A stretch of DNA of 56,183 nt, filler included, from Jimgerdemannia flammicorona (GCA_003990765.1; 3 parts of 3 records of this genome joined end to end with filler, not necessarily neighbours in it); one strand, 5' to 3'; positions 1 through 55,371 are shown, counted from the first letter of the whole stretch. The notes: generated by a model from the sequence alone, not told the origin. Program-made: numbers and translations.

Positions 1-66
1 GTGACAGTTAGTGCCAGCAGTTATCATGCGAGGGTAACATGCAAAAATATTAACAAGATCGCAAAC

Positions 67-295
67 CTCCAAAGTATACGCTGTTAACTGTTCTTCCCTT
101 CAAGCGATACCGCGGATCTCGAAGGATGTGGGCTAACTCTGTGCATATCGCCGATCTCATGCGTTCATGAGGCGGATTGGCAGGGTTGACGTACTTGTTG
201 AAATTGCAGTAGGTGCACTTGGTCTCGCAATACGGCCAGTGAATATATATCGAGAATGGCTGTTTGGATAGTAAGGCACTCACTCGAGACGCCAT
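67..295 (-). CDS. Radical SAM heme chaperone HemW/RSAD1-like protein, first exon (gene continues off the window)
   Basis: MASRVS...SIYIHWPYCETKCTYCNFNKY...VNSVYFGG: CxxxCxxC radical SAM motif in HemN-like context; GT donor at 66. Confidence 0.85.
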
Positions 296-551
296 TGTTT
301 TGAATGGAGAGAGACAAGCCACAAGTTCGACGACGCAAGTCACTATTGGTTCTGAACGTGAGAACTTTATTTTTTAGCGAAAAGGGCAATGCCTCCACTA
401 AAACGCGACTATACAGTTTGAAAAACGAAGTATGGTACGCTTATAAAGAGCTCAGTTGAGAATTGAAATGAAAAACGGACGTTTACGGCGCCAAACGATG
501 GATATACCGATTCCTTAATCATATTTCACATGAAAGAAACGTAGTGATTAC

Positions 552-1685
552 TTATTTATCGTTCTCCGCCAACACCAACACCGAGGGCCACTGCATCTTG
601 AAGGTCTCCATATCCCTATCTTTCAAACCAAGCACCTCCTGAAGCTTGCGCGCCATCCTCTCGATCGGATCCTCAGCGTCCGGGAACTTCTCGCGGTAGT
701 TGGCATAGGAAGACCAAGTCTTGATGAAGGTCTCGAAGTGATCGAGGGTCATGTCTTGCTCCATGAATGGAAGGGGCGAGACAGAGCCGATATTGTCGCT
801 GTTGAGCTCGTCGTGGGAGAAGTGCCATTGGACATTCTTGAAAGGGAAACTCACGTCGCGGTAGAAGTTATTGAGGATACTGATCCTGGGCTCTGAGTTG
901 AAAGGTAGAAAATATTAATTTTAGAGACGGAAAATTCACGTCGATTGTGATCATGTTATCGGAAGATTTCAAATCTACCCCAGTAGGGGCCCAATTCGTT
1001 GACCCCACAGTCGTAAATGATATTGCTCGCCTCCTTGTTGCCCACGACGATGGCATACGAGTATCCAAAGACAGCTAGTGTGCCTTGCGGCTTAAGGATG
1101 CGCTTGGTCTCCTCAAAGAACTTGGGATGATCGAACCAATGGAAAGCCTGTCCTGACGTGATGATATCGACGCTGGAGTCGGCAAAAGGAAGTTCCTCGG
1201 CGGGGGTTTCCCGGTAGTCGATGTTGGGTTTCTGGACGGCGTGGGAGAGCATCTAGGACGCCAATAAATGGTTCAGGTGCGGAACGGAGGATCGAACAAT
1301 GTGATTTTGGTGAGATATGGTTGGTTGCTAGTGATGACAATGCAACAGATGGCAGAAGTAATATACGTACGATATTTGAGCGGTCAGTGCCGTGAACCTT
1401 TTCAAACTTCTCGCTCAGGGCTTCAGCAACTTGACCATTACCTAATGTAATTCGATATGGAAGGTTCAACGAATTGGAACGCACAGTCATGGTAATTATT
1501 GCTGTAACGTTTTCAAGTCCATAGCTCCAATTACACTTACCCGTCCCAACATCTACCGCGTCCAAAAACTCGCCTCCATTCTCAGCATGAAAGCAGTAGA
1601 TTAGATCGTACAGCGCCGGAGCGTAGGTTGGGCGAAAATTGCGATAGCGCGCGGCGTTGAAAGTTGTGCGGGAGAAGGTGGTCAT
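552..1685 (-). CDS. Class I SAM-dependent methyltransferase (Methyltransf_11, Tmt1/Crg1-like); exons 1685-1541, 1441-1371, 1252-979, 892-552
   Basis: YRNFRPTY, motif I DVGTG|NGQ, AEELPFADSSVDIITSGQAFHWFD, LKPQGTLA, TWSSY; GT-AG junctions restore the frame. Confidence 0.88.
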
Positions 1686-2651
1686 TGTATTATGGATTAT
1701 GTGCAGTATTCTTTTTCAATGAGTGCAAGTGTAGTCTGACAAGGGCGCTTTTATCCTCGCTTCAGGACCACAGCATTAGATCGACCGGCTCATTCCTTTT
1801 CCGCAGTATGCACTGTGAAATTTGATTGGCGAAACGGAGATGCATGGGCTTCTGTGACTAATTCTTACCCGACCTCTCGGGGTTCAAGCATTTAACGCCA
1901 TGCAGGGATATAGCTTTAGGTTTTGTGAATCTTGACGGTGGCTAGTCATAGACATCCGAATTCTCCCGCTTAGAAAGGGAATCATGAATCTACCGTTCCT
2001 CATTCCCAGAATAGAAGTTGCCCTCACTTGCCTAATCCAAAGCAAGCGGCAATCTTCCGATCTCCGATGCCTCCGTTCCTGTGAGTAATTCGCATGTGTA
2101 TATCTGACAAGCGTCCGTCATGAGGTCATGAGCGTCATGTGTATTAAAATGTTATAAGCTGATTGGCACAAAGTTATTTACCAACGACAATGCCCCAAAT
2201 GACCAAAGCGAAACCCTATACGAGCTGTATTTATCATGACTCATGGGATGAAGTTTTGGTGAAATCCAGGCTTGAGTCGGACATCGATAAAATCAATGCC
2301 CCTAAGACACTAAGATCCTAAGGACAGCTCCACCCAGCAAAGCCCAGCAAAATCACTGGCGCATGTATTGAGTTTTTCACGACCCAATCCTTTTGTAAGG
2401 GGCTGGTCCCTGAGTATTTCTTATTGCTTAGTCTTCACTAAAGAATTGACTGAGATATAACTGAGAGGTATTCATATATCATTTATTGGAGCATTGCATG
2501 CCATTTAACAAATAAAGGAAATAACAAAGGGAGAAAAGACCACGAGTGAAATCACATGAAGAGCAAAAAGAAAGAAAAAGTGCATGAATAACCACAAATA
2601 AGGATCAATAGTCAATAGGGATCATTAGCAAAAAAATCCTTGAGCGGTCTC

Positions 2652-4115
2652 TCACTTTTGCAACAGGGTAGTGATCAACCTCTTATACCCGTCCACCGAC
2701 TGTAGCAACTCCTTCTTGCTGATGAACTCGTGCGGTGCGTGCGCGCACAAGATAGACCCGGGCCCGTACAAGTAGGATTTGACAGGACTCTTCCAAGCGC
2801 CGATATCTATCGCAAGCACGGGACGAATAAAATTTGTTTCAACAGAGCGGGGCGAGGATCCAAATCCATATTTCCCGAGAAAACATCAGACACAATGTGA
2901 CTTACCAGTATTATATTTCATGACATCAGTCTCGAACCCTTCCACAACCTCGCACCTGACGGGCTCAAATGTGATCTGCCTAACGAGGCGGACGCCCGGG
3001 CGGTCGCCGACGGCTTCGAGGATGAGGCGCCAGAGGTCGTCGACAGTGGTGGTAACGCGGCACATGATGTCCGCAGAGGCGAGAGCCGGAATCACGTTGG
3101 CCGCCACTCCGCCGGAGAGCAGGCCGATGTTCATGGTCGTCTCACCGAGGCGCGCGTCAACCGGAAGTGCCTGAAGGTGGGTGAAGTGAGTTGGTGAAAT
3201 TCCGGGGATGGAGAGGTGAAGTTGTGAGCCGTACTTACTAGGTGTTTCAGCGTGTAGAGGACCTCTATTAGGGCATCGGTCGCGGAAATGCCGAGCTCCG
3301 GGTAGCCGGAGTGGGCTGGGGTGAGGTGAGGTGAGAGTATAAGCAAGGTTTAATTGAAACTGTGGAATCAAGAAGAACCGACCGCCAAAACTCACCAGCT
3401 TTACCGGTCACCTCCACGCGAAACTTGATGATTCCCTTGTGACCTTTGGCAAGAATCAATTCGGTCGGTTCACCTGTACGCAGCCAGTTGGGAAGACGTT
3501 AGCACACAGTTATCATCCCCATGCCAGACACAGAATGCATCTACACACCGACAATCAAAAACTCGGGTGTGATTCCAAGATTGTTTGCCTCCACCATGCC
3601 GACGTGATCGACCTCCTCGCCAACGACGTAAAGTACACTGAATAATCAAGACGAAGCGAACGTCATCAAATCAGTGGGCAAGGCACCCACTCTAACATAT
3701 AGCAACTTTCCATCCTTCCGTCGACCTACCCCAAATCCCCCTCCCCCAATCTTCCATCTCTCCATAACTCATCCGCGGCAACAATCTGCGCAGCAACGCT
3801 TCCCTTTGCATCAGCACTCCCCCGTCCATACACGTTCTCGTCGTCCTCTCTATACGGAATATAAGGCGGTACGACATCGATATGAGAGTTGAGCACGGCG
3901 CGCACGTTCCGGTTCTTGCCCGGGTAGGCGAAGACGTTCTCGCGCGCCGGGCGCGACCCCTCGGCGGGACTGACGAGTTGGGTCTCGACGGTCCAGCCCA
4001 AGGCGCGGAGGTGCTCGGCGAGGAATACGGAGCATGGATGCTCGTTCTCGGTTATGCAGTCGATGGAGACGAGGGAACGGTGGAGCGCGAGGAGGGCAAA
4101 ATTGGTTGTCGACAT
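2652..4115 (-). CDS. Peptidase M20 family (acetylornithine deacetylase-like), multi-exon
   Basis: NSHIDVVPP, YGRGSADAKG, VGEE, GEPTE, AHSGYPELG, GGVAANVIP, YGPGSILCAHAPHEFI; stop at 2652-2654. Confidence 0.88.
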
Positions 4116-4586
4116 TGAGAGTGGGGTCAGGATGAGTTGTTTCGACAAATTTTTTTGATGGTGCGTCACGTGACAACCGATATATATTCTAACCCTAACC
4201 CCGTCACACAAACGGATGACCTATGAAAGGAGGGTACATTTACGGGAACAAAGACCGAAGAATTTTAAGAATACTCAAGCAAGTCATGCAATGGGTACCA
4301 AAAATGAAATTAGATACAGCATGAAAAGTGTGGAAGGATGAGAAGCGTGAATATATATATATATATAACGACACGTTGTGTCATGTTAGGCCAAACCGGC
4401 TGCTGCCGACCCTGTGATCCGGCCGAGAGAACGTGCGGAGTACACACTCCCGTTGTAACCCATCCCAAATCCGGAATGCACGACGAGGAGATGGCAGTAA
4501 ACACTCTCAACGCTTCCGTTCCGGATCCCAACCAACCACGAACCAACCAAACCCACCAACTAATTCCCCCGGCCATACACGACACG

Positions 4587-7325
4587 CTACGCGCCATAAA
4601 CGTCCGTTGCCTCGAACTTGGAGGTGAAAACGAATCGCTGTTCGTTGACGAGTGCCTCGATCCTGAGCTCGGTGAGGGAGAAGATGAAGTCAATACGCAT
4701 GTCGACACGGTCGCCGATCTTGACGCTGGGCAGGTGCGGGATTTCAATCGGGAAGTCGGCGATCTTGGTTATGCCCCGGTCCGTCACCTGCCGCGGAATC
4801 GGCGGGTCGTCGTCGTACGCGTATAGGTCGGCTGTGTGTTAAAAAAATTGACGTGAGCACATAGAGTAGTGAGAAAGCACAAAACACACAAGAATGGGAT
4901 GAAATATTGTACGCACCTTCCGTGTTCTTGGGATACGTGATCCAAAAGTTCTTACTAATCCTAAAATCAACCCCAATTCTCTGCCCCTTCTTAATATAGA
5001 CATCAAACCTAGTCGAGCACCTCTTAATCCCATCGTTGGTAACGACGGCTGATTCCTCGGGGTCTTTTCCTTCCTCGAACGTCATGCGCGTCATCACACC
5101 ATAACTGCGCCTCGAGATCTTCGACGTAACGATGCGCGGGTTGAGGCCGAAATAGACAGCCCCACGTACGACGGCCAGCTCGCCGCGGGGCGGCGCGGCG
5201 ATCTTTCTGACGCGTGCGTCGAACTGAGCGCGGACGCGGTCGTACAGGTAGTCAGAGGAACCAAATCCTCCCACGAGGAAGATGGCGTCCAAACGTCCCG
5301 GGACCTGCGAGATCTGCTGCTCCATAAGCTCGAGGACTTGCAGGATCACCGGGTCGAATACCTCCGTTTTAAGCTCGCTGGCGGGAAGGCGAAGGACACC
5401 GTCCTGAAGGATGCGGGAGAAAAAAATATTTAGTAAGGAGGTGTGCGATCGAATGTACATCAAAGCACTGCTGGCATATCAACACATAATGTCATCATAC
5501 CTCAAGACCAATCTTTTCGTCCGTGAGTTGGTCCAAATTGGCGGAGGCCGGGAGGTTGATGAATTGATCTTCGTTGCCATCATACCCAGGCTACGCAATG
5601 GAATAAAATTTTATCAATCAACGAATCTCCCATAAACCGACAAATACATCCCATCACAATTTAACCACCAAAAAATCCAGGGCCAAAAAAAAAAAAAAAA
5701 AAAAATTCAACCTTAACCGTCTCAACAAACGAATCCATCATACTCTCAAACGCGCACGCAGGGATCTGCGCCATGTAATCCCTAAATTTATACGCCAGCA
5801 GCCTCCGCATATTATTATCCAGAAATACGCTTCCACACGCGCCGCCATGGCCGGAGGTGACCTCCTTGAGTGTCCTCCCGGCAGAGGTATCCTCGATCTC
5901 GTAGACGATAAGATCAACAGTGCCGCCGCCGGCGTCGCAGATCATGAAGGTGTTGCCGTGTTTCAAGTTCCACTGGTCGCACTTCTTCTCACAGTACAGT
6001 GCCGCGGCCTCGGGCTCCGAGATCAGCATCAAACGTTCGGGGTGGTCGTCCGGTTTCACAATGCCCGAGCGAACGGCGGCCTCGCGCATGGTGGATTTGG
6101 CACGGTCAGACCAGATGGCGGGGACGGTCAGGCACTGAGTGGGACGAGTTAGGATTGTGATAAGATGGAGAGATCGCATTATATATTCTCTTAAACCCTC
6201 CAACACCAACATCATGCTGCCCCCTCCCCCCCTCTCTCTCTCCTTCCTTCCTCCTTCACTCATCTACATACGTATCGGAACTGATGCGGCCCGTAGTTAT
6301 TCGCGAAGCCCTTGCGCAACTCGGCCATAATGTGACCGTGCATGCACTTGAGGTAGTCGACGATAGCGTCGAGGGCCGTGAGCCCCTCGTTGAGAGGAGG
6401 TAGGCCCAGCTTCTCGTAATCGTCGTCGAGGTAGAGCTTGAACTGGTGGAGGAGCGTGCCATCCTTTGAGGTCGGCTATAGGTGTAAGGGAAAGAAATAG
6501 ATGGGTTGGTTGTCGTTCGCTTGGTCTGTGCACGAGTGGAATTGAGCTGTGCGGACTTTGTGTACCGAGATCTCTCAGGTGGGAGAGTATACACAGGATC
6601 GGGCGTACCTTTAGCATGGTCAGTCGCGCTCCGTTACCCCATTCCGTCACCTTTTTCAAACCTTTCCTGTAATACAGAAGGGTCGGCGTCTTTGGGTATA
6701 TGTTGTTGTTTTGCTTGGGCCATTTCGTGATGTCGTGTATGTCAGCTTCGTTCTGCGCGAAGGCGTAGCTACATCCCTGGATTACAAGTCAACACAGAAC
6801 CGTGTTAGTGATTCATTGTTGACACCATCTCGAAAGCGTGACGAACCCGTACCAATCCGAGCCAACCCACCCCACTCCACATACCGAGTACGTCGTGCCA
6901 AAGTCGATGGCAATCACGATCGGGTACTCCTTGTAGTTGAAGTTCGCGCTCTTGGCCGTGTCCTGTTTGGGTGTGGGCCGCCCCTGCTGCGACTGCGACG
7001 AAGGCAAAGGGGAGGGGGAGGGGGAGGGGGGAGCGTGGCTCGGCTGGTGATGGTATTGTTGCTGTTGTGGTGGCAGTGGTGGTGTAGATCCTCCTAGGGT
7101 AGGTGAGCCTGGGTAGAACGGTTGATGGGGCGTGGCATACGACTGAGGGGTTGGGTAGTATGGTGGTCCTCGGGTGGGAAACTGCTGTTGAGGGAGGTTC
7201 TGCGGCCGTGGGGAAATTGGGGAGGCTGAAGGGGATGGTCCCACCGGGGACATTGGGCGACCGTTTGTGAACGGCTGGGTGCTTTTCTGCATAGAAGGGA
7301 TGGATGTTCGGTGTCGTGCGTCCAT
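4587..7325 (-). CDS. HSP70-12A-like actin-fold ATPase with Pro/Gln-rich N-terminus, multi-exon
   Basis: IAIDFGTTYS, LTVPAIW, ISEPEAAALYC, ICDAGGGTVDL, FLVGGFGSSDYL, VVRGAV. Confidence 0.88.
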
Positions 7326-7999
7326 GGGTTCAAATAATAGTAGAAGCCGGAGGAGGGGGTAAGAAGGTGCAAGGACTGTCCTTTGACACACCTTATTTAT
7401 AGTCTGGTCTGCTGCACACCAAAATAAAACATGGTACCTTGGCCATCCCGTAATCTTTCTTTCTTTACCTTCTTTGGTTTTCCCTCCTGTAATCCTGTCC
7501 TTGTTGATTGGCAGAGTCGTCCGCCGACGCTATATTCACTCTGTTCTCATAATAAAAAAAGAAATCAAACCGTTCCACATTAACGCTCTATCTCCAAAAA
7601 GGATTCCACCGTGTCCCCACCCAAGCATATGATGGTCTGCCCAACAAGCACCTTTCGGAAACGTTTGCTGTAATTACCTAGACGCCGATCCAGTAAAACA
7701 ATTACTGCGCGCAGAGGCAGTAATAAGAATGTGGAACACATTGTTTTCTCACGAAATATACATAAACAGATGGGAGCGAATCATATTGAAGTAAACGGAT
7801 CTATAAGTTACGCTGGGCTGAGGGGCAGAAAATCCCAGCGGTGGGCTGAGATCCCAACAGTTTCCAAATCTCGCATTATACTTCAGGAAATGTAACGTCA
7901 AACCAACCAAAAACCATTTTGGGACCAGACATGACGTGCATTTAGAGGGGTGTGTACTTATAGAGATTAGAGTATATGCTATGTGATATGACACCTTTC

Positions 8000-9247
8000 T
8001 CTACTAGTAGCTATCATCCTGATAGTGGCTATCACCCTGACAGTGAATGTCACCCCATAAATAGCATTCTATAGTCAACCAGATAGTGACCAAGATAGCA
8101 ACCACAATGTATAAAATACCCCAGAGACAAGAGTGAATAAACCTCAGTTCCGAAATACAAAGCAAAAGACAAGTTTGTCTACTATACTTCAAGAGATATA
8201 CCTGTCAAAAGCCACTTGATCCTAAAGGAATTGAATTGCAACACTTAGGAGAAATGCCTGCTCTACAGCCACTACTAAGAGATTGTGAGCTTTGCCCCTT
8301 TCCTACTCTGGTCCACTTTCTGTTATAAAGAATGAGTCTGTTTTGGTTTACTTGTTAGATAAGTCTGAAGATTTGCTACCTAAGTTCAAGGAAGAACTTC
8401 ACTGCCATTTCCCAGTAGAAGCCCACTGATTTAGGAAGAATCTGCACTATCTGAGTAGTATTCCCAGTTAAAGCTACTAATTTAGGAAGAATCTGCAATT
8501 CTAAGTTATCCATACCATCTGAGTTATTTCCCAGAAGCCCACCAATTTAGGAGAATTCATGTCATCTGTTATTTCCAAGTTATCTGTATTCCCAGAAGAG
8601 TCTGATTCACAATATCTGAGTTATTCATTTGTTCTCAGTGAGCTGAATCGAGTTATCTGTCAGAAATTGCATACTTTTAGAGATTGTCTCACTACACAAA
8701 TTGTGATATTTCCAGTTGATCCAAATAAAGAACCCAGTCATACTATATAAGATTGTTATACAGAAATTGTATAAAGAGAACTACTAAGTTGCCAGACTGT
8801 CACACCTAGAAGATCATCATACTATATAAGATCATCACTCAGAAATTACATACTTTTGGAGATTATCATACTATATGAAATTCTATCAATTTCCAGTTAA
8901 CTTAAGAAGGAAACTCATTTATACAAATTACCACTATATCCAGAGAACAGTCCCAATAAGGAAACCACTTGCAGATATCCAGCTTTTGACTATTATACTA
9001 CTAAACACCAAGGATCTCAGGAATCTTAGAACATTTTGTTACTTTTTAACAAAGTAACTAGAGGCTCAAGCCAAACTACATCAACCCCCAACCTTATAAT
9101 TTACCTCCATTGAGTCAGGCATGTTATAATATATATTATTAGTATATTATTAATATAGATATTCTTGAAGTAGTATAGTTTTATATATTTGCTAATTATA
9201 AGAGAATTTAGTTTATATAATTTATCTATATTAATATATAATATAAT
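8000..9247. repeat. Degenerate AT-rich repeat-derived DNA with imperfect ~45-50 bp tandem units (8400-8620)
   Basis: CpG-poor; recurring TTCCCAG..AAGCCCAC.AATTTAGGAAGAATCTGCA units; no recognisable protein. Confidence 0.45.
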
Positions 9248-10216
9248 TGTAAGAGAGTTGCTTTTTAGGGTAACCATTATATAGTTCTGGAAGAGTTTTC
9301 TAGAAGTTCTGGATATTCTGGAAGACTGTTTTCTTATGGTCAAGATCAATTTTATATGGAGTACATCCTCTATGCTTATTGATTTCAAGATCAGATTGAT
9401 GTCTCAACCAAAGTCCTTTTTCAGACTAGTTCTAGATATTCAGGATTTTCCATATTTCAGAAAGTTTAAGAAACTAAGACCAGCTTAGTTGAATTGGTGT
9501 ATTGCTGCAGACAATACCCAATTAGGAAATTTCATGATGGGGTTAGGAGTGAGATCTAACAGAGAGCAGATTTACTTAAGAGTAGTTTGTAGATTATTAA
9601 ATAGGTTTATTCACTATTTATGATATTACTATACTAAGAGTAGTTGTGTAAAGAGATATTGTGGAGAAGTGCTCAGGAGTTGTGTTTGGATTGTTCTTGT
9701 CTGGTGGTATTTGACCATGTCTTCCAGAAGGCAGCTGATCTGATAGTAGCTTGAAATTTGTCTAATTTGGTGGGCCTCACTAAGCATATTCAGAGCATTC
9801 CATCAGGCTTCTGTGAAGTAGAGGAGTGCCAGGCTATGGATATTCATAAGGGGCAGAGGGGGTGTGGCTTGGTTGACAATGGCATTCCAAATGTCAGTAT
9901 GGATACAGTTGTAGATCTCAGTGGTCATATTTGTGTATTTAGAAGTTGTGATTATTGTTTGTTTTGGTTTTTTGTTTCAACATGTCTTGGTGCTCGATAT
10001 ATATACATTTGGTTCTAATTGGTAAGATTCTGTTTGTGTAAATCTTGTGTTCCATGACTTCATGTTGACTCAGCTTTGTGTGCTGTGACTTCAGTTTGAC
10101 TCAGCTTCATGATCATATAGATGATTTCCAGATTTATTCAGAGGTTGCATGTGATTTCAGTGGCTTGTTCAGAGGGTGACATGTGATTTCTGTGGCTTAG
10201 AGGTTGTGCACTTACA
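9248..10216 (-). repeat. 3' LTR (short, internally deleted 969-bp form)
   Basis: TGTAAG...CTTACA termini; colinear with 16697-17665. Confidence 0.93.
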
Positions 10217-10230
10217 ACTCTCCCCTTCTT
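10217..10230 (-). other. Polypurine tract
   Basis: AAGAAGGGGAGAGT on the minus strand directly before the 3' LTR. Confidence 0.85.
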
Positions 10231-10659
10231 AGCTTTTGATATCCTCATTGGGGCCTTCTAATTTTGTTCTAGTATTGTTATACTATTTGGGAGATCAAAA
10301 GTCCAGTGAAGTCCATTTTTCTCAGAAAGTGGCATGCTTGTAGTACAGTTGTCTAATGTGTTGGATTCATATATTAAAGGGTCATGTATTCAATATTGTA
10401 CACCAGAAGTAATTCTGACGTCATTCATTGCTGGAGAATTTTCTCTAAAGAATCTTCTTAAATGTCTATACCTCATTTCCCACCAGTAGTATGGAGAGAA
10501 TAGGCTTGCTTTCAGTTTTGCTATTTTTTCAGAGGGTCAGTATTCTTTTGTCTTGACTTACTGAGTTCTTGATTTGATTTATGATAATTATACTGTTCAA
10601 AAGGTAATATATAGTATGTACTAATAGGTGTTAGAGTGTTCAGGTTTCAGTTATTCAGG

Positions 10660-13600
10660 GAATCGTATTCCTGAACTAGGTTGGTAGTATTCTGGAGGTT
10701 AGTCTTAGGTTCCTATATTGTATCATGGATTGGATAACCTTTCCATTTGACAAGATACTCAGGATAGTTCTTGTGATCATGCTTGTTGAGGATTTGTTCA
10801 ACTTCATATTCTTCTTAGTCATTAATAATAACAGATATAGGTGGTTTGATAGTTTGGTTCAGGAATAGCTTGTCATCATTTTCATTATATCACTTGAGAC
10901 ATTGAACATTGAAGACTGGGTGAATCTTAATAGTATCTGGTAGTGCCAATTTGTAGGAAGTAGAAGAGACTTGTGCAATGACTTCAAATGGTCTGATAAA
11001 CTTGCTATTCAATTTTGTAGATGGTCTGTGCTTGAGATTGTCAACTCAGTATCCTCGGATATCTAGTAGAACTTTTTCTTCAATATCAAAGGTTTCTTCT
11101 TAGCAGTGTTGGTTAACATACTGTAACTGTTGTTCTTGAGCTCATAATAAATTCTCAATGGCAATCTGGCTTAGATTGCACATTTAAAGTAGGAATTCTT
11201 CAACAGCTTCAACTGTGGAGGGTTTATCAGTAGTTTGGATAAGTGTCAGAGGGGTGTTTGGGTTTTGTCCAGTATTGACAAAGAATGGGGTCATTTCTAG
11301 AGAGGCTTGCTTGCTATTGTTATAGGCAAACTTGACTGTAGTGAGGTGTTCATATCAATCATCTTGTCTGTAGGAAACATAGTTCCTTAGCATTTGTTCC
11401 AGAGTTTGGTTCATTCTTTCAGTTTGGCCATCAGTTTCTGAGTGAAAGGCTGTGGATAGTGTGAGTTTCATTCCAAGGTATACATAGAGGGCTTTCTAAA
11501 AATGGCTGGTGAATTTCAGGTCTCAATCACTAATAATGATCTTAGAAAGACCATGATAGCAGAAGATATTGTCAAACAAGAGTATAGCTATGTCTGGTGC
11601 TGTTGCAGTAGTAGTAGTTGGTACAAAGTGAGCTTGTTTGCTGAGATAATCTACAAAGACAATAATTGCATTTTTTCCATTCTTGGTTTGGGGTAGTTAT
11701 ATAATAAAGTCTATAGAGATTTATTCCCAATTAGCAGATGATACTGGAATAGGGTGTAGTAAACCAGGTTTTGCTAGTGTTGAGGACTTATTACATTGGC
11801 AGACATTACAGGAAGTGATATAGATCTTTAGTTGATCTGCCATGTGGGGCCAATAGAAGTTTTGTGAGATAACTTCATAGTATTTGTCAAATCCTAAATG
11901 TCCAGTGGTAGGCATATCATAACATTCAAATAGGATAGTCCTTCAGAGGTCTCGGTTGTTTGGAACATACAATCTGTCCTTGTAGTAGATAGTATTGTCC
12001 TTTAGTTGGTATTGATAATACTGAGTATACTTGTCAGCATCATTACTGTTCAGAATTTCTTAGAGTACTTGAGCTTCTTTATCATTAGCATATACTGTGA
12101 TAATTTGTTCTATAATAGAGTTTGTAACCAGGGTGAGGGTTTAGATAACTTCTTCGATTGGTGGTCTAGAGATTATATCAGTAACAATATTTTCCTTGCC
12201 AGGATGATACTGAATTTTATAGTCAAAGTTGGTGAGGACTTTCATCTATCTGGCTTGCTTTTGGGAAAGAGTAGCCTATGTCTTAATATTGACTAATAAC
12301 TTATAGTCAGTTAATACAGTGAAGTATGCTCCTTCTAGGTATGGTCACTATTTGATCAGAGTATCTACAATGGCTAACATTTTCTTCTTGTAAGTTGCAG
12401 GAGTGATAGGCCACAGGATATCCTTCTTGCATGAGCACTGCTCCAAAGACTAGGTCAGAGGTATCAGTAGTAACTTCATATGGTAGAGCAGAGTTTACTA
12501 CTTGAAGTACTAGAGTAGTTATCAAGATATCTTTCAGTTCTTGAAAGGCAGTATCTTGCTCAGATCCCCAATTTACAAGATTGTTGAAGTCTTTCTCTTA
12601 TTTCATGGTCCAGGGCTGTTCTTCTTTCTTACTATGCTTGGTCATTTGGGTGAGAGCAGTGGTGATTTTAACAAATTACCTGTAATAGTTTGCTAATCCC
12701 AGGAATGACTGGAGGTCTTTTAGCTTCTTGGGTCTGGGTCAATCCTTAATTATAGAGATTTTACTGGAGTCCACTTTGATTCCATTTAGTGTGACAATAT
12801 GTCTAAGAAATTGAATTTTCTTCAGAAGGAATTCACACTTACTGAGTTTTGTAAACAGTCAGTTTTCTCAGAGTTTCAGTAATACTAGTTCAAGATGTTC
12901 AAGGTATTCCTCCAGAGTTTTGCTGAAGACTAGGATGTCATCAATGTAGACAACAACGAATTTATCCAGATATGGGTGTAGAATGGTGTTCATCAGTATC
13001 TGGAAGGTTGCAGGAGCATTAGTTAAGCCAAAGGGCATAACCAGGAACTCAAAATGTCCATAGTGGGTTTGGAAGGCTGTCTTGTAGATATCTTCTTCTT
13101 TCATGGTAATTTGCCAGTAACCATTTCATAGGTCAAAGGAGCTCATAAATTGTGGGTTAGTAAGTCTATCAAATATTTCATTGATTCTGAGTAGTGGGCA
13201 ATGGTTCTTGATGGTCTGTTCATTGAGGTCATGATAATCAATGCACATTTACAGGTCTTCTCCTTTCTTGACAACAAAGAAAACTAGTGCACCATAAGGC
13301 AATATACTGGGTCTGATGAATTCTTGTTCTAGGAGTTCATCAATTTCTTTCTTGAGTGCATCAATTTCTCTTGGCAATATAGTAGATTGACTAGAAGGCT
13401 GGCTTAGCATCTGAGATAGTCTTGATTGCATGGTCTATTGCTTGTTTAGGAGGTAGGCCTTTTGGGAGCTTCTTTGGGAATATATTTTGGAATTTCTGGA
13501 GTAGTGATCTGACATAGCTGTCAACTTTGGAAAAGTCTTCTTCAGAGTTCTTGGGTTCTCCTTTAGATGGACAGATAGAGATAGCAAAGAGAGGGCATTT

Positions 13601-16600
13601 CTTGGGCAATTTCTTGAGTTGTAGCTTATTGATGTGGATGATCTTTGGTCCAGAATTACTAGAGTTGAGTGGGTCTTTTTCATCTTGCAGTTTGAAGTTG
13701 TGGTGTCCTTTCTTGATGGTCAGAGAATGATTTACCCAATCAATCATGAGGTTCTCTTATTTCAACCATGGAGTTCCAAGAATGATCTCATTGTCAGAAA
13801 GTGGTACAATTTGAAGGATAACATGTACTTAGTAGTCACTAATTTGGAAGGGTAGATTGCAGACTTCTTTGCTGATAATATGAGAGGTTCCATCAGCTGT
13901 GGCAACTGCTTGAGTTTGTTGTACTGGAGATGTGAAGACCTTGAGTCTGTTGGCTGTTTCTTTATTGGTGAAGTTGCCTGAGGCACTGCTGTCTATCATA
14001 ATCTTGACAGGTGCTTGGTTGACAAAAGCTTGAAGTGTAAGCAGTTTGTCTGATCCAATGCTGGTGATTTCAGTTATAGGAGCTTTCCTTCTGTTAGTTC
14101 TTCTTTGAGCCAGTTTGTTGACATAAGAGAAGTAATCATCAATCATTCAGGAAGAGTACATTCCAATGCTATAGGGACATTGGCCACTTGGTACATATCC
14201 ATCTTCGATTTTCTTATAGAATTGTTCTTCCTTGTTCATAGTAGGTTGGGCTGGGGCCTTGTTTGATGAGCCAAATTCTTTGGATCCTTGGATAGTAGGT
14301 AGTAGTTCAGAGACTTCCTTGACTGTTAGGGTTGACTTGATTTTTTCGAATAGGATCTAGGCAATGTAGAAACCAATGAGAATCTTGAAGAGTGTCCAAC
14401 TATGGTTTTGGATAAGAACAATAATTTCACCTACATAATCTTTGTCAATGACTCCTCCTTCTACTGAGAGTCCTTTTAATGCTAGACTGCTGTGACAGCA
14501 TATTCTTCCAATATATCCTTCAGGGATTTAGATACTAATTTCTATATAGATTTGCTTGACTTCTTAGTTGGAGACTGTAGCTTCTTCAGCTACATACAGA
14601 TCATATCCAGCTGCTTTTTAACTTTCTTTGGTTGGGGTCTTAGCAGTTTGTCTTAACTTGACAAAGTCCAGTATTCTGGTAGTCAGGTTATTGAGATAGT
14701 GTAGAGTAGTAATAGTTGCTCATATTGCTGTTTGGGGTTTTCAGTTAGGGCAGGTACTGGCCATGTGTCCTGTTTTTTGGCAATAGAAGCATGCTCTGCT
14801 TCTTTGAAGTTCATTCCTTTCTCCTTTAGTAAATTTCTTGAAGGTACTTGGCTGAGTGGGTTCATGATTTCTAGATGTCCATGAGGTGGATGTGGAGGGA
14901 GCTCAGGGTGATTCATGCTTGGATTCTTCTTTCTTGGTCCAAGTCTTTTCCTTGTTATTAAATTGTCTTTGAGGCAGAATTGATCTAGCTATTAGAATTC
15001 ACTTGACCATAGTCTTAATTCTTGCCAGGAACCATTGTTGGTGATTGCAACCAACTGGGTGGCCTTGTTCTTGGATTTTTCTAGTAAGCCATTCAGGCAG
15101 GGCATTGAATAAATAGTCTGCTCTTGTACCATTTCGTGCTTCATCATTGGCAATATATCTTAGGTCAATAGTGTTCAGGAGTGACTCAAGTTTTATATAA
15201 AAGGTTTCAAATTCTTCTTTGTCATGTATATCAAATTTGAGGTTGTGGAGTTTTACTCGAGATTCAGCAATCATAGTTTCATTATAGTATTGAGCAATTA
15301 TGAGTTGCTTGAGTCTAGGGGCTGCAGGATGGGTGCCATATCCTGGGGCATTGTTTGCTGCATTCTGGGCAACTACTGCAGGTTGGGTATCCCATATGAG
15401 GGGTTTTTCAGGAAGAGTTTGCCACCATTCTTCAGCAGATCCTTGGAAGAATATAAAAACTTAGCAGACATAGGCTGTAGTGGTAGCAAAGAGTTGTTCC
15501 AGAGTGTGGTCTTGATTGTTTGTCAGAAGGTGGTCAGCAACTCACTCATTGGTCTATTGATTGGCTTTGAAGTTGGTGTCAACTATACTAATAAAGCTTT
15601 GGACTTCTTATATAGTACCATTGAAGATAGGTAGGCTCAGATTTTTAGTAGGTTGGGTTTGTTTGGCTAAGGTAGTAATGGTTGCTGCCATTATTACTAC
15701 CTGGGCTGTAAGGTCTAGAATCTGTTGGTTCACTATATTGTTTACTGGAGGCAGTTGAACTGCTGATAATAGTATTACTGGTACTACTTGAGATACTGGT
15801 ACAGAGTGTGATGGGGTTCTTTGGGTCTGTGTAAGTTGCTGGAGTAGTAATTGTAGGTCTGAAGTAAGGGCTTGATAGATAGCTGTTTGTTGCTATATAG
15901 GTGTATTCTGTTCTGATGGAGGTGTGTCTTCTTCAGTGGTGTATCCAGGATTGAATTCACTGAGATACTCCTCCTCCTCTTCAGTTTGGTCTCTGTATAA
16001 TTGGGTTTGCTCGGCATTAAAGTAGATAGAATTAGTTATATATCTGATTTCAGATAGACTTAATTCAAAGTCAAGTTCTGGTTCAGTATTGGTCTCAGAT
16101 TCAGGTAGAGCTATAGCAGGGCCTGCTTTAGGTTCAGGATCAGATTGTTGATGAAGAGTTTCTCTTACTTCTTCCTTAAGAATATGGTAGGCCTTACTAT
16201 TCTGGAATTGGTAGTATAATGCAGTCTTGGTCCTGGTATGGTGAAAGTTGGTAGAGTTGAGCCACTTAGCTACAGAGGCTTGGGCTTTGTGAGGGACTAA
16301 GACTAGAAAGACTGCTGCTGGTTATCCTAGGTCACTTGGATTTGTGGAGCTGACAAACTCTTATTGAGAAGAGTAAAGAAGGCTTCAATAAGACCTTCTT
16401 CATCTTGATTTGCTGGGTGTAGTGCAAGGAGTTCGGTGAATAGAGTTTCGCCTATTTGCTGGTTTAATTAGAGTACTTCTTTCTTTGAGTGAAGTTTGTC
16501 CCACTTATTGCAAGTGTGGAGGTCAAATTGTCCTTATACATCAGGTTCAATTCTCTCCAGATTGTCAGATGGTTCAGATAAATTCCAGTTCAGAGGTTGG
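10660..16600 (-). pseudogene. gag-pol polyprotein with many stops; 5' limit approximate
   Basis: CFYCQKTGHMASTC knuckle (~14750-14792); protease [39 protein letters not shown]; integrase GHLG..YWP..CNVCQ; chromodomain EYEVEQIL..EYLVKWKGYP (~10690-10815). Confidence 0.92.
14265..14670 (-). pseudogene. Trimeric dUTPase domain inside gypsy polyprotein, between nucleocapsid and protease
   Basis: AAGYDLY, PEGYIGRI..SSLA, GGVIDKDYVGEI, IA*IL, QGSKEFGSS (five motifs, degenerate); in frame with the CCHC knuckle. Confidence 0.9.
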
Positions 16601-16681
16601 GCTTTATACTAACTTATAGAAATTCTCAGAAAGGTTTATAGTGGGGTAAGGAAGCATCTTGAAGTGGAATTGGATTGTAAA

Positions 16682-16693
16682 CTGCTGCTACTA
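16682..16693 (-). other. Primer-binding site, probably tRNA-iMet
   Basis: TAGTAGCAGCAG 3 nt after the 5' LTR; reads as a G>A-mutated TGGTAGCAG-type PBS. Confidence 0.6.
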
Positions 16694-16696
16694 AGT

Positions 16697-17665
16697 TATA
16701 AGAGAGTTGCTTTTTAAGGTAATCATTATGTAGTTTTGGAAGGGTTTTCTGGAAGTTCTGGATATTCTGAAAAACTGTTTTCTTATGGTCAAGATCAATT
16801 TCATATGGAGTATATTCTCTATGCTTATTGATTTCAAGATTGGGTTGATATCTCAACCAAAGTCCTTTTTTAGACTAGTTCTGAATATTCAGGATTTTCT
16901 GTATTTTAGAAAATTCAAAAAACTAAGACCAGCTTAGTTGAATTGGTGTATCACTGCAGACAATACCCAATTAGGAAATTTCATAATGGAGTTAAGAGTA
17001 GGACCTAACAGAGAGTAAATTTACTTAAGAGTGATTTGTGGATTATTAAATAGGTTTATTTGCTATTCATAATATTGCTATACTAGGAGTAGTTGTGTAA
17101 AGAGATATTATGGGGAAGTGCTCAGGAGTTGTGTTTGAATTGTTCTTGTCTGGTGGTGTTTGACTATATCTTCCAGGAGGTGGCCGATCTGGTAGTAGCT
17201 TGAGATTTATCCAATTTGGTGGGCCTTGCTAAGCATATTTAGGACATTCTATTGGGCTTCTATGAAGTAGAGGGGTGTTAGGCTATGGATATTCATGAGG
17301 GGTAGAGGGGGTGTGACTCAGTTGATAATGGTATTCCAAATGTCAGTGCAGATATAGTTGTAGATCTTGGTAGTCATATTTATGTATTTGAAAGTTGTGA
17401 TTGTTATTTGTTTTGGTTCTCTGTTTTGATATGTCTTGGTGCTCAATATATATACATTTGGTTCTGATTGGTAAGATTCCATTTGTGTGAATCTTGTGTT
17501 CCATGACTTCATATTGACTCAGCTTTATATGCTGTGACTTTAGTTTGACTCAGCTTCATGATCATGCAGATGATTTCCAGATTTGTTCAGAGATTGTGTG
17601 TGATTTCAGTGGCTTGTTCAGAGGGTGATGTGTGATTTCTGTGGCTTAGAGGTTGTGTGCTTACA
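16697..17665 (-). repeat. 5' LTR (short 969-bp form)
   Basis: Direct repeat of 9248-10216; TSD ATAAT adjacent at 17666-17670. Confidence 0.93.
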
Positions 17666-17844
17666 ATAATTAAGAGATATTCTTTATTAATTTTGTATTC
17701 AGCAAGATATTGAGTTACTAATATTCAGTCTGGTTCTAATTTATAAAGTAGATTTAGAGATAAGATAAATAAGATAGATAAAATAGATGAGATAGATAAG
17801 ATATAATAGATGAAATATAATATATAAGATAGATATGATAAACA

Positions 17845-18444
17845 GCTCCTTTCTCTGCTATCTTACCAGTTACAAGGTTTGGTAGGCGACCTTCTGAGTC
17901 CCCTTTCCCCTAATATTACCCCCTCTACCTTGGGTTGATTTGCTGTACCTGCTGGGGCATAGTGGGAGGAGGGCAATGGTGCTGAGTTGCCCCTTTATCG
18001 GTATCAGATTAGTGCTTTCTCAACTTTTTTGCAGATTCTGGTGCCTTTAGCTATATCTGGAGTATACCTGTTTTGGTGCAGCACCTTCTTCCTTTTGCCA
18101 TTACCAATAAGGAGTTGTCTCAGTATGTCTTGGGCTATATAGGGAGTCGGCTGACCTTGGGCATCGAGTACTCAGTGTAGGTTACCTGCAGGTCTTCAGT
18201 GCCTATGGTAGGGCCCTCTGGCTTTGGTGAGCTTCCTGGCAAGTATGGTTCTGGCATAGGTGACTGTTTTTCAGGTATTGTCGGGATGGGAGGGGAGATG
18301 GCCATTACAGATAGGAGAATGGATGATAACAGTGAACCAGTAGGGTGTCAGGCTAGGGATGGTCATTGGGGCTGGGGTGGGTGCTGCTTCAGTGGGGCCT
18401 TTTGATTGGTGCAGTGTAGTTAGGTGGTAGGTATCACTCTCGGC
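17845..18444 (+). mobile_element. 5' half of the 1.2-kb poly(A) retroposon family, interrupted by a hAT-type insertion
   Basis: Begins GCTCCTTTCTCTGCTATCTTACCAGT, matching the reverse complement of the element ends at 24840 and 39397. Confidence 0.8.
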
Positions 18445-18662
18445 TAGTGCTCCTAACGAGTCAATTTAATCCGGATTGGATTCGGATTGATTCGGATTGA
18501 ATCCCATCCGGATCAACTCGGATGGGATTCGAATCGGATTCGAATCAACCATTGTTTTGATTTCCAAATTAGACAATTAAATGTTTACATCAATAATTTG
18601 ATGAATAATCATCCAAATTTGATGATCTTGGTGTCATTTGAAAGCCCTTAATAAAGCCTATC
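18445..18662. mobile_element. hAT-type MITE end, truncated by contig end
   Basis: TAGTGCTCCTAACGA terminus like the 22780 element; subterminal TCGGATT/GAATC repeats. Confidence 0.65.
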
Positions 18663-18762
18663 NNNNNNNNNNNNNNNNNNNNNNNNNNNNNNNNNNNNNN
18701 NNNNNNTTAATTAATTAANNNNNNNNNNNNNNNNNNNNNNNNNNNNNNNNNNNNNNNNNNNN
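18663..18762. other. Artificial contig spacer
   Basis: 44 N + TTAATTAATTAA (stop in all six frames) + 44 N. Confidence 0.97.
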
Positions 18763-22779: not shown

Positions 22780-23073
22780 TAGTGCTCCCAAACGAATCGA
22801 ATCGAAGATATCAAATTGAGATCCAATTTCAATTCAAAATTTTTATCCCAATTTCAAAATGTAATAACTCGATGAAAACACATCCGAATTTAATATTCTT
22901 TGTTGTGCTATATTCACCATAATAAGGTGTATCTAACAAGCTAAAATTCATTAAATTAGGATATGTTTTGGTTGAGTTATTGAATTTTGAAAAATTAGGT
23001 TCGAATCAAACTTTGAATCGAATTGGGCCTCATGGAATCGAATTGGGGTCAATTCGATTCGTTCTGAGCACTA
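22780..23073. mobile_element. hAT-family MITE, 294 bp
   Basis: TIRs TAGTGCTC..AACGAATCGAAT; perfect 8-bp TSD GTAGAAGT (22772-22779, 23074-23081); internal inverted repeat. Confidence 0.92.
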
Positions 23074-25706: not shown

Positions 25707-26000
25707 TAGTACTTTGATTGAGTCAGGAAAATTTGAATCTGATTTAAATTTGCCAATTATATGTCTGATTTAAGCTAGTTTGAATTTATTACATAATGAA
25801 TTCAAACCAATCTGAATTTATTATGTGATAAATTCAAATCAGTTTAAATTTATCATATGATAAATTTGAATCAGTTCAAATTCATTATATAATAAATTCA
25901 AATCAGTTCAAATTCAAATTTAATATATATTGAGTTCAGGTTGATTTGAATCCAAATTGAACCAGCTCAAATTTACCTCAAGAGTTAGAATCCTGACAAA
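25707..26000. repeat. Hypermutated TAGTGCT-terminus (hAT-like) element with ~30-bp tandem units
   Basis: TAGTACTTTGATTGAGTC start truncates the LTR; repeated GAATTTATTAT..ATAAATTCAAA.CAGTT. Confidence 0.4.
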
Positions 26001-26790: not shown

Positions 26791-27015
26791 TGAAATTTCC
26801 TCAGGAGATAAATAATAAGAAGCATTGAATTGGTCAAAAATTGGGTGAAGCAGGGGAATTTGTCACCACATCTGGTAAGAAGTATTGAAAAGAAATAAAG
26901 CTATCTCTATAATAGCTATTTTATATTCCTTCTATTTATCTTGTCCAATTTTTGGTTTAAAATTATTGAGAGGTATAATACTGTAATACATCTCTCTGAT
27001 ATGTAAGATCCAGTT

Positions 27016-29093
27016 TGTAAGTAAACAACCTCTAAGCTACTGAAATCACACATCACCCTCTGAACAAGCCACCAAAATCACACATGACCTCTGAACAAAT
27101 CTGGAAATCACCTGCTCAATCATGAAGCTAAGTCAAACTGAAGTCACAGTACACAAAGCTGAGTCAATATGAAGTCACAGAACATAAGATTTACACAAAT
27201 AGAATCTTATCAATCAGAACCAAATGTATATATACCAAGCACTGAGATACGTTGAAACAGAGAACCAAAACAAACAATAACTATAACTTCTGAATACACA
27301 CAAATATGACTACTGAGATCTATAACTGCATTCACACTAATATTTGGAATGCCATTATCAACTGAGCTACACTCTCTCTGCTCCTCATGAATATCCATAG
27401 TTTAGCACCCCTCTACTTTATAGAAGTCCAATGGAATGCCCTGAACATGCTTAATGAGGCCCACTGAATCAGACAAATCTCAAGCTACTATCAGATCAGC
27501 TGTCTCCTGGAAGACATGGTCAAACACCACCATGATACAGACATTACCCAGATGTCTCAACACCAGAAACATATTGCCCACAAACACTGAGAACTCTTTT
27601 ATAAGTATAGCACCTTTATTCCCTACCTCTGAGTTACTACCAGCAAAATAGTTACTACTCTGTCCTATGGCCAAATTGATGACATGATACAAGAACTCAA
27701 CTACAAGTATCTAGAATATGTCCAGACCACAGACAGAATCTTCTTGTACCCTGACAACTATATCCTACAAATGCCTTAAGTCAGATACGCTATAAAGAAT
27801 ATCTATAATATAATCTACTTCAATGAAGATGAAGCAGAAGACAATGATCTCTCTGACACTGACATGACCTCTAGCCAAGAATCTCTACCAACTCTGATCA
27901 CACCGCCAACCTTACCAATGAACTTACAATAGTTCATAACCACATATGAAACCTATTGGGACAATGACTACTGGTATAAATACTAACCTGCATTTATCCC
28001 TGATTACTTCAACTATAATGAAGAAACTGGAGAACACAATCTGTACCTCCAGGCAACCCTTGAGATCAAACCAACCACTCCACCACCCGAGTACGAGTGA
28101 TATGAACCACAGTCACCAGCTTACTACAATCCCATGACTTATAGTGCTGTAACCTAAAGAAAATATGCAGACAGTGAATCTGATAAAAGCAAGAACAATA
28201 TATCCCTCCTTCATTCACCAACACCTTATCCAGCATACAAGACTGATGATGCCATTTTGTGGGATGGAGATGAAGTTCCAATGTATTACATATTACCTCA
28301 GTGAACAAGGAGAAGTAATCTGCGAACCACTCTTCCTAGATAACTACTTCATTAGAGATAATACAATTGATAGTGATATCATTGAAGACTACCCAGACAA
28401 CATCTAAATCTATAAATAGTCTAGCAGTTATAGTATAGTTAGATTAGCCTTGTATGACATAACTGTGGACTGACTCAGTACTCAGACAATCTCTTGATAT
28501 ATCAGATCACACTTGTACTATATGACTGCATTCTGACTCAGCAAGGCACTAAGTGCTATATCCATATTTAGCATAGTCCAGATAGCCCCTCACTAGTATA
28601 AATACCCCCTCCCCCAGACCTCAGAATCTCAGACTTAAACAGACTTGAATACACAAGAACATTCCTGAACACTTTTCTATAATATCCCTTCACACAACCA
28701 CTCCTAGTATAGCAATATCATGAATAGTGAATAAATCTATTTAATAACCCACAAACCACTCTTAAGTAAATCCACTCTCCATTAGATCTCACTCCTAACT
28801 CCATCATAAAATTTCCTAATTGGGTATTGCCTGCAGTGATATGCCAATTCAACTAAGCTGGTCTTAGTTTCTTGAACTTCCTGAAATACAGAAAATTCTG
28901 AATATCTAGAACTAGTCTGAAAAAGGACTTTGGTTGAGACATTAACCCAATCTTGAAATTAATAAGCATAGAGGACATACTCTATATGAAATTGATCTTA
29001 ACCATAAGAAAACAGTCTTCCAGAATATCTAGAACTTTCAGAAAACTCTTTCAGAACTATATAATGGTTACTCTAAAAAGCAACTCTCTTACA
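27016..29093 (+). mobile_element. Solo LTR, long 2078-bp form
   Basis: TGTAAG...CTTACA; perfect 5-bp TSD CAGTT (27011-27015, 29094-29098); ends colinear with the 969-bp LTRs. Confidence 0.93.
27306..28407 (+). pseudogene. LTR-embedded ORF, ~365 aa consensus, unknown function
   Basis: MTTEIY...DYPDNI*; the stops checked are sense codons (CGA/CAA/TGG) in sister copies; TATATATA at 27227 upstream. Confidence 0.75.
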
Positions 29094-35939: not shown

Positions 35940-37222
35940 TGTAAGCGCACAATCTGCAAGCCACTGAAATTACACGTCACCCTCTGAACAAACCTAGAAA
36001 TCACCTGCTTGATCACGAAGCTGAGTTAAATCGAAGTCACAGCACACAAAGCTAAGTCAATACGAAGTCATGGAATACAAGATTTACACAAATGGAATCT
36101 TACCAATTAGGACTAAATGCATATATACCGAGCACTAAGACATGTCAAATCAGAGAACTAAAACAAATAACAACTACAACTTCCAAACATATAAACATGA
36201 CCACCGAGATCTATACCTGCATCTGTGCTGACATTTGGAATGCCATTGTCAACTGAGCCACACCCCCTCTGCCCCTCATGAATATCCATAGCCTAGCACC
36301 CCTCTACTTCATGGAAGCCCGATGGAATGCTCTGAACATACTTAGCGAGGCCCATCGAATCGGACAAATCTCAAGCTACTACCAGATCAGCCGCCTCCTG
36401 GAAGATATGATCGAACACCACCACGATACAGACATTACCCAGATGTCTCAACACCAGAAGCTCATCACCTGTAAATATCGAGAACTCTTCTATGAGTACA
36501 GCACCATTATTCCCCACCTCTGAGTTACTACCAGCAAAATGGTTGCTACCCTGTCCTATGGCCAAATCGATGACATAATACAAGAACTTAACCAAAAGTA
36601 CCTCAAGTACGTCGAAACCACAGACTAAACCTTCCCCCACCCCAATGATTACATCCTGCAAATGCCCTAAGTGGGATATGCCATGAAGGATATCCATGAT
36701 ATAAACCACTTCGATGAAGACGAAGCAGAAGACAATGATCCCTCTGATGCTGACATGACCTCTAGCCAAGGATCTCTGCCAACTCTGATCACACCGCCAA
36801 CCTTACTGATGAACTTGCAACAGTTTATAACTGCATATGAGACTTATTGGGACAATGACCACTGGCATGAATACCAATCTGCATTCACCCCCAATTACTT
36901 CAACTACAATGAAGAGACTGGAGAACACAACCTATATCTCCAGACAACTCTTGAGATCGAACCAATCACTCCACCACCTGAGTACAAGCAACATGAACCA
37001 CAGCCACCAGCTTGCAACTCATAGTACTGTAACCTACAGAAGGTATGCAGACAGTGAATCTGACAAAAGTGAAAATGATGCACCCCTCCTTCGCCCACCA
37101 ACACCTTATCCAGCATATGAGACTGATGATGCCATCTTGTAGGACAGAGATGAAGTTCCAATGTATTATTACCTCAGCAAACAAGGAGAAGTAATCTGCG
37201 AACCACTCTTCCTAGATGACTA
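35940..37222 (+). repeat. Long-form LTR copy (least mutated) inserted in integrase, truncated by a TAGTG-terminus insertion at 37223
   Basis: TGTAAGCGCACAA start; ORF fragments 36278-36523, 36671-37024 and the C-terminal part of 36837-37142. Confidence 0.9.
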
Positions 37223-55370: not shown

Positions 55371-55371
55371 T

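Follow-up and report, generated by a model that had tools for sequence, protein, structure and literature searches.

CpG-first cytosine-to-thymine hypermutation of transposon blocks in Jimgerdemannia flammicorona, probably linked to DNA methylation

A transition-only LTR pair

Transposons in a 56,183-nucleotide stretch of DNA from Jimgerdemannia flammicorona (GCA_003990765.1; "the window", filler included, three parts of three records joined end to end and not necessarily neighbours in the genome) carry a heavy load of C-to-T changes, as exemplified by a Ty3/gypsy element at 9248–17665. The two long terminal repeats (LTRs) of this element differ by 113 transitions and not a single transversion, with CpG hit first and other cytosine contexts to lesser degrees. 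We consider it probable that this pattern arises by progressive, methylation-linked C-to-T mutagenesis through DIM-2-like enzymes in heterochromatic transposon blocks, and not by RIP (repeat-induced point mutation) in its canonical form.

The element is a dead chromovirus on the minus strand: it has LTRs and a target-site duplication (TSD), the order protease, reverse transcriptase, RNase H, integrase, and a C-terminal chromodomain. As originally noted, both LTRs share one TSD (ATAAT). Domains were located by a Pfam profile search in which stops were read as X:

9243–9247, no strand: TSD ATAAT, left
9248–10216, minus: 3' LTR, 969 bp, 1 CpG
10217–10232, minus: polypurine tract ahead of the 3' LTR, assigned from position and purine run
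10662–10808, minus: chromodomain, broken (PF00385, E=1.8e-10)
11448–11957, minus: integrase zinc-binding domain and core, broken (PF17921, E=7e-16; rve weak, E=0.006)
12433–13248, minus: reverse transcriptase plus the beginning of RNase H, broken, with frame changes on both sides (PF00078, E=3.4e-29; PF17919, E=5e-9)
13703–14059, minus: aspartyl protease (PF08284, E=4.7e-9)
14264–14644, minus: dUTPase, broken, between Gag zinc knuckle and protease (PF00692, E=2.5e-25)
14744–14797, minus: Gag CCHC zinc knuckle (PF00098, E=2.5e-4)
16697–17665, minus: 5' LTR, 969 bp, 1 CpG, its terminal TG now TA
17666–17670, no strand: TSD ATAAT, right
9122–17845, no strand: older, very AT-rich element hosting the gypsy insert, about 300 bp once the insert is subtracted, 17% GC, 0 CpG; possibly a solo LTR

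The LTR alignment (970 columns, 0 gap columns) contains 113 mismatches. An earlier estimate of about 25 transition-type mismatches without indel over the first 235 nucleotides or so proved exact, as there are 25 in the first 235 columns, every one C/T or G/A. When C or G is taken as ancestral at each mismatch, the loss is 32/34 at CpG, 49/158 at CpA, 21/93 at CpC and 11/123 at CpT, so that 81 of the 113 changes are non-CpG. The three non-CpG contexts are unequal (chi-square p=5e-5): CpC exceeds CpT (p=0.007), and CpA is not significantly above CpC (p=0.19). The rate is set by the 3' base, no clear 5'-base preference was seen, and CAG (13/36) is changed as often as other CA sites (35/121). The claim of a cytosine mutator reaching CpA, CpC and CpT on gypsy, long interspersed nuclear element (LINE) and miniature inverted-repeat transposable element (MITE) copies is borne out, but "broad-context" overstates it, with CpG and CpT rates roughly 10- to 40-fold apart.

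Of the 113 changes, 49 lie in the 3' LTR (36 G>A and 13 C>T on the plus strand) and 64 in the 5' LTR (35 G>A, 29 C>T). CpA loss per LTR copy is about 0.155, compared with at most 0.0015 transversions per site per copy (95% upper bound), an excess of at least 100-fold; CpG loss exceeds this bound about 1000-fold. An LTR divergence of 11.6% reached without one transversion invalidates LTR-divergence dating here, which had rightly been called unreliable.

The coding region shares this load. Its 1831 codons include 43 in-frame stops, 4 CGN and 0 NCG codons; it is these counts that inform, whereas the observation that the stops are TGA, TAA or TAG carries no information, because no other stops exist. 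In the internal region TAA/(TAA+CAA) is 17/105 = 0.16, a CpA load equal to that of one LTR.

For comparison, 13 long direct-repeat alignments were taken from 12 unrelated gypsy loci, which came from the best 80 of at least 571 metagenome matches to the element. These repeat pairs give 337 transitions to 182 transversions (transition/transversion ratio, Ti/Tv, 1.85), far from 113:0. The probability of 81 non-CpG transitions and no transversion is about 6e-16 at the control ratio, and 4e-7 under an assumed Ti/Tv of 5. One control pair from an unrelated gypsy locus (L134, 4609–4934 versus 9775–10100) also shows 25 transitions and 0 transversions, so transition-only pairs are not exclusive to Jimgerdemannia; its spectrum differs, however (CG 9/38, CT 10/49, CA 3/38, CC 3/33).

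These numbers make it improbable that the pattern is the ordinary CpG methylation decay of old transposons, with the non-CpG changes as background. CpG is indeed the most depleted context, and the L134 pair as well as 6 of 80 unrelated gypsy loci with a CpG observed/expected ratio (o/e) below 0.1 are in line with such decay. Yet 81 non-CpG transitions without any transversion or indel already contradict it, as do the unequal CpA, CpC and CpT rates and the polarity toward T/A. Moreover, 49 LTR mismatches pair TA with CA or TG; a CpG-only process cannot yield these, since each needs a hit in CpA context regardless of CpG history.

Direction, strands and site independence

The polarity is read from related copies elsewhere in the window. 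At non-CpG mismatch sites these copies carry C/G in 134 of 190 alignment cells, compared with 608/724 where both LTRs have C/G and 68/1309 where both have A/T; this excess of C/G indicates that the changes run from C to T. Both strands are affected, with no strand bias in any of five copies (Fisher p 0.27–0.78), and no clustering was detected in either LTR (context-preserving permutation, p 0.34–0.79).

A dedicated cytosine or 5-methylcytosine (5mC) deaminase (AID/APOBEC-like or TET-coupled), acting on integrated repeats independently of DIM-2 specificity, would account for the size of the transition excess over transversions, and the dUTPase of the element could, speculatively, reflect uracil pressure. 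APOBEC-type enzymes read the 5' base and produce one-strand clusters, whereas the rate here follows the 3' base. Because the LTRs differ both ways, the changes post-date integration and do not stem from reverse transcription. We regard such a deaminase as improbable. APOBEC editing during reverse transcription itself is ruled out, since differences between the LTRs go both ways and fall on each of the two strands.

The skew is also present outside this assembly. Contigs of an independent soil run (X6) show 806 transition and 60 transversion differences to window positions 1–16690, almost all on the transposon part, and at 478 of these places a G/C in the contigs faces an A/T in the window; the transition skew is therefore family-wide. 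Summed X6 contig depth is 250–1070 over the transposon part and below 1 over the genes. A sequencing, DNA-damage or assembly artefact, such as deaminated herbarium DNA or chimeric LTRs, is accordingly very hard to credit: fragmentation of the assembly and its gaps at repeats would fit it, but the soil run shows the same skew, the TSD copies match, and the genes flanking the blocks show normal CpG and agree with proteins in databases and with RNA contigs.

Other repeat copies in the window

The process extends to other copies and families:

27015–29093, plus: related longer LTR, copy C; 5/62 inferred CpG retained
30940–32697, minus: related LTR, copy D; 2/56 inferred CpG retained
35957–37222, plus: related LTR, copy E, less mutated; 15/49 inferred CpG retained; CpC loss 0.10 versus 0.18–0.23 in the others
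45900–51000, minus: LINE, partly mutated, CpG o/e 0.16, 54 CpG, ends approximate (RVT_1 E=6e-20 at 46430–47059)
25768–25913, no strand: palindromic MITE core, two 73-nucleotide arms differing by 17 transitions and 0 transversions
52474–52830, no strand: heavily mutated MITE, 11% GC, 0 CpG

In a five-copy alignment, in which each copy was scored against the remaining ones (leave-one-out), CpA loss per copy is 0.21–0.35, CpC loss 0.10–0.23 and CpT loss 0.04–0.08, while CpG is retained at 0/38, 1/31, 2/56, 5/62 and 15/49 sites. These rates are rough, since the "C if any" rule used for polarising gives too low a count at saturated sites, with 2–6% apparent reverse changes left over. CpG and non-CpG loads co-vary, copy E retaining most CpG and having the smallest CpA and CpC load. 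The description "transition-only" fits the LTR pair but not independent copies in the window, which show transitions to transversions of, for example, 269:27, 189:13 and 238:19. The last ratio belongs to a repeat with an A-rich tail, probably a non-LTR element, of which another copy pair gives 111:17. Raw counts for old diverged LINE pairs are not skewed toward transitions (123:116 at 65% identity), as expected where lineage divergence dominates. When the MITE at 52474–52830 is compared with its copy at 22.8 kb, 20 of 25 CpA-context and 4 of 9 CpC-context sites have changed.

Several features of these families are recorded in their own right. The LTR family exists in a long form of about 2.1 kb (27015–29093) and a short form of 969 bp (9248–10216), which lacks a middle part of about 1.1 kb containing an acidic open reading frame-like stretch. 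In RNA contigs of runs X1 and X2 the LTR has deep cover and the internal region almost none; the contigs do not distinguish which copy is transcribed, and absence of cover carries no weight as evidence. Between 38000 and 51000 a very strong strand skew (GC skew to -0.64) lies over nested LINE copies with a G-rich sense strand, and may reflect either intrinsic composition or biased decay. The MITE family whose ends read TAGTGCTC and whose TSD is 8 bp long (22780–23073, 18445–18662, 25707–25950 and 52474–52830) is presumably hAT-like, judged on TSD length; untouched and saturated states coexist in it, and its TCGA repeats have turned into TTAA. dUTPases occur in some fungal gypsy elements, and one in a chromovirus is notable for a genome under heavy cytosine-deamination pressure. 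A search of public contig collections gave no close relative of the element, the best matches being 62% (viral, 56 loci) and 72% amino-acid identity (metagenome, among the best 80 of at least 571). Of these two sets, the 80 metagenome loci alone entered the analysis, and solely to provide controls.

Block borders and escaping repeats

The mutated repeats lie in two blocks, flanked by three repeats that escape mutation, each at a gene-facing edge:

7936–18444, no strand: first CpG-depleted transposon block, CpG o/e 0.03–0.16 versus 1.06 in the gene region 1–7900
23074–53007, no strand: second CpG-depleted transposon block, including the assembly gap 37424–37523
22780–23073, no strand: escaping MITE, 294 bp, TAGTGCTC ends, 8-bp TSD GTAGAAGT, 10 CpG, at the gene-facing block edge
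18445–18662, no strand: escaping CpG-rich MITE end (TAGTGCTC) reaching an assembly gap
53008–55500, minus: escaping decayed copia relic with stops and frameshift, CpG o/e 1.18, just outside the block (PF22936, E=1.2e-16; PF25597, E=5e-5)

The gene regions have CpG o/e values of 1.06 and 1.16, the interiors of the two blocks 0.00–0.38, and the switch at the borders is sharp, within about 200 bp. Within the blocks the loads are graded, from copy E (CpG o/e 0.38) and the LINE at 45.9–51 kb (0.16) to the repeat hosting the gypsy element (17% GC, 0 CpG) and the MITE at 52.5 kb (11% GC). The copia relic looks old and yet keeps its CpG, which implies that being derived from a transposon is not enough to set the process off; low copy number would fit, and so would shelter from active chromatin. 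None of 191 candidates was a protein relative of the relic at E<=1e-8, which is weak evidence. As to a trigger by homology, the escaping repeats of the window agree equally well with age, copy number or position at a chromatin edge. The assembly gaps at 18663–18762 and 37424–37523 (TTAATTAATTAA spacer) each adjoin a less mutated repeat, and the joined contigs may not be neighbours.

A true RIP analogue, in which homologous pairing around zygospore formation would lead to burst mutation by a DIM-2-like paralogue via a heterochromatin route, without RID and CpG-first, is unlikely in our judgement, though it merits more weight than a deaminase. It would explain the extreme Ti/Tv of 113:0 and the sharp confinement to repeats, and the copia relic without a detected relative keeps CpG as single-copy sequence would (a weak point). 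In Neurospora, RIP can run through DIM-2 independently of RID (10.1101/115501), and two of the three DIM2-class proteins listed for J. flammicorona have no active-site pattern row (PMC9963178), a lack that is reported as a trait of the RID/Masc1 class (PMC4352252). However, neither strand coherence nor clustering is seen, the spectrum is CpG-first, and a 294-bp MITE with homologues in the window is untouched. The genome, at 231 Mb, consists of 73% repeats, a state that effective RIP tends to prevent (PMC12543289). The closely linked LTRs are mutated no more than the internal region, which weakly opposes the idea and does not discriminate, as the family is high-copy.

Host genes and lineage

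Two host genes at the left end of the window place it:

2553–4220, minus: M20 peptidase gene, ends approximate, spliced in RNA contigs
4568–7340, minus: HSP70-12A-like ATPase gene, ends approximate, spliced in RNA contigs

The M20 peptidase exon matches a J. flammicorona protein with 100% identity over 96%, the next best match being Mortierella at 65%. For the HSP70-12A-like exon, 143 of 145 aligned residues are identical to the J. flammicorona protein of the adjacent locus tag. The conjecture that the host might belong to the Mucoromycota is thereby confirmed (J. flammicorona, a mycorrhizal and early-diverging fungus of the Endogonales), and a Pezizomycotina host, for which canonical RIP would have been expected, is rejected on the same two exons. 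A spliced methyltransferase-like gene, recognised by eye (no Pfam match on single open reading frames), lies at 552–1715 on the minus strand under very deep X1 RNA-contig cover; contigs cannot rank expression.

A methylation-linked mechanism

We propose that the transposon blocks of J. flammicorona are heterochromatic and would be cytosine-methylated by DIM-2-like enzymes, perhaps together with a CG maintenance enzyme. Methylation would be strongest at CpG, lower at CpA and CpC, and lowest at CpT, and methylated (or enzyme-bound) cytosines would become thymine at a rate far above that of all other mutations. Hits would fall on both strands, site by site, and accumulate after insertion, so that a single C-to-T clock would run in each copy: CpG would be lost first, CpA and CpC next, and old nested copies would end at 11–17% GC. 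Genes, plus some repeats at gene-facing edges, would remain outside the domain. Deamination may be spontaneous and unrepaired or enzyme-assisted, and its timing may be mitotic or sexual.

The literature lists candidate enzymes. RID-1 is reported to be exclusive to Pezizomycotina, DIM-2-like homologues are described from Endogonales and Glomeromycota, and Clr4 and HP1 are conserved across Mucoromycota (PMC9963178); as regards RID, assemblies of this species are only about 70% BUSCO-complete (PMC12543289). In Dataset S1 of PMC9963178, three DIM2-class proteins are assigned to J. flammicorona and two to Endogone. Of the three, one has a row for the C5-methylase active-site pattern, while 479070 and 483080 do not, which makes the latter two candidates for a divergent, RID-like role; a missing C5-methyltransferase active-site pattern has been reported for RID/Masc1-class proteins (PMC4352252). 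Endogone has DNMT1, and the part of Dataset S1 covered holds no DNMT1 row for Jimgerdemannia. In Phycomyces, a member of the Mucoromycota with a DIM-2 homologue, 5mC is confined to transposable elements (TEs) and occurs at CG and CHH (PMC11258239, PMC13297926). In Zymoseptoria, Dim2-dependent TE methylation amounts to 43–61% at CG, 10–22% at CA, 3–8% at CC and below 0.01% at CT, while more than 98% of mitotic C-to-T mutation falls at CA (PMC8016269) and the mutation rate increase is 15-fold (PMC8497519). The mutation order CpG > CpA >= CpC > CpT, seen in the LTR pair and in each of the five aligned copies, equals the Zymoseptoria methylation order and not its mutation order.

Several points weigh against this proposal. 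Passive deamination is usually credited with less than the excess of at least 100-fold seen here; this gap may point to a lack of G:T repair, to long dormant phases in which no replication occurs, or to deamination aided by an enzyme. Of the five runs tests, that on copy R reaches nominal significance (p=0.034), many weak rounds of RIP would likewise yield unclustered, two-strand, graded loads, and the escaping MITEs may simply be young. Both tested Dim2 systems mutate CpA and spare CpG (Zymoseptoria, PMC8016269; Neurospora, 10.1101/115501), so that what is matched is a pattern of methylation and not one of mutation as measured. Relative to their methylation in Zymoseptoria, CpC and CpT are also hit more often here, and DIM-2 context preference is not conserved, as the Neurospora enzyme is said to favour CT (PMC8016269).

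More tentatively, an active, RID-independent mutagenic genome defence may operate in Endogonales, in which one or more divergent DIM-2-like paralogues would enzymatically convert repeat cytosines to thymine. Such a RIP-like defence beyond Dikarya would be either convergent, or a sign that the DIM-2 branch of RIP predates the Dikarya–Mucoromycota split.

Non-CpG C-to-T mutation in repeats of a lineage with DIM-2-like enzymes and without RID bears on the sufficiency of DIM-2-type methyltransferases as mutators and on the age of that function. LTR-divergence ages and TE-burst timings in Endogonales are inflated unless transversions alone are used.

Comparison with known systems

Our literature searches, which left the genome paper (Chang et al., 2019) and the per-species k-mer tables of PMC12543289 outside their scope, returned no published case for Endogonales, and the pattern is unreported in the available text of PMC13297926 and PMC7928374. 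A kingdom-wide screen found RIP-like signatures restricted to ascomycetes; Jimgerdemannia and Endogone are in its species table, k-mers were counted only on scaffolds above 50 kb, and repeats were contrasted with all non-coding DNA (PMC12543289). With an assembly N50 of about 11 kb (PMC12543289), the 50-kb filter and the non-coding contrast could have caused fragmented, repeat-saturated genomes to be missed.

Dim2 of Zymoseptoria tritici (PMC8016269, PMC8497519) provides a likeness in TE-confined, transition-dominated C-to-T mutation, in a 5mC order (CG > CA > CC >> CT) like the mutation order here, and in the DIM-2-like enzyme listed for J. flammicorona. However, more than 98% of its mutations are at CA and CG is spared (PMC8016269), whereas here CpG is hit first and CpC and CpT are hit too; Zymoseptoria is, moreover, an ascomycete that additionally has RID. 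The present case resembles canonical RIP, as known from Neurospora crassa and further Pezizomycotina, in dense C:G-to-T:A changes confined to repeats, LTRs hit independently, reading frames killed by stops, and AT-rich relics, but that process is CpA-first (here CpA is not significantly above CpC) and involves RID, reported absent from the lineage of Endogonales (PMC9963178); clustering and strand coherence were not detected here, though many rounds would wipe out such marks. In Neurospora, RID-independent, DIM-2-dependent RIP is likewise strongly CpA-preferring (10.1101/115501).

TEs of Tuber melanosporum, a TE-bloated, ectomycorrhizal, truffle-forming fungus with Dim2, have CpG as the main and CpA as the second context, but Tuber has a RID/Masc1 gene (PMC4352252). 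CpA or CpT signatures were found only in genomes with RID/Masc1 (PMC4352252), an association that the Jimgerdemannia case would break. Basidiomycete TEs (Microbotryum, rusts) show near-total CpG loss without RID, but the changes are CpG-confined there (PMC4352252), in contrast to 81/113 non-CpG changes here. Phycomyces blakesleeanus, of the same phylum, shares TE-confined 5mC at CG and CHH; what is reported there is methylation and not hypermutation, and without CHG enrichment (PMC11258239), whereas here CAG is hit like other CA.

The original prediction of a RIP-like process describes the outcome but probably not the mechanism. The spectrum is CpG-first and not CpA-first, CpT is weakly hit, strand bias and clustering were not detected, loads are graded, and RID is reported absent outside Pezizomycotina (PMC9963178), so the process is not classed as RIP. 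It is neither CA-only like the Zymoseptoria mutator nor CpG-only like ordinary decay, and seems to be a variant of methylation-linked transposon mutagenesis undescribed for the Endogonales lineage.

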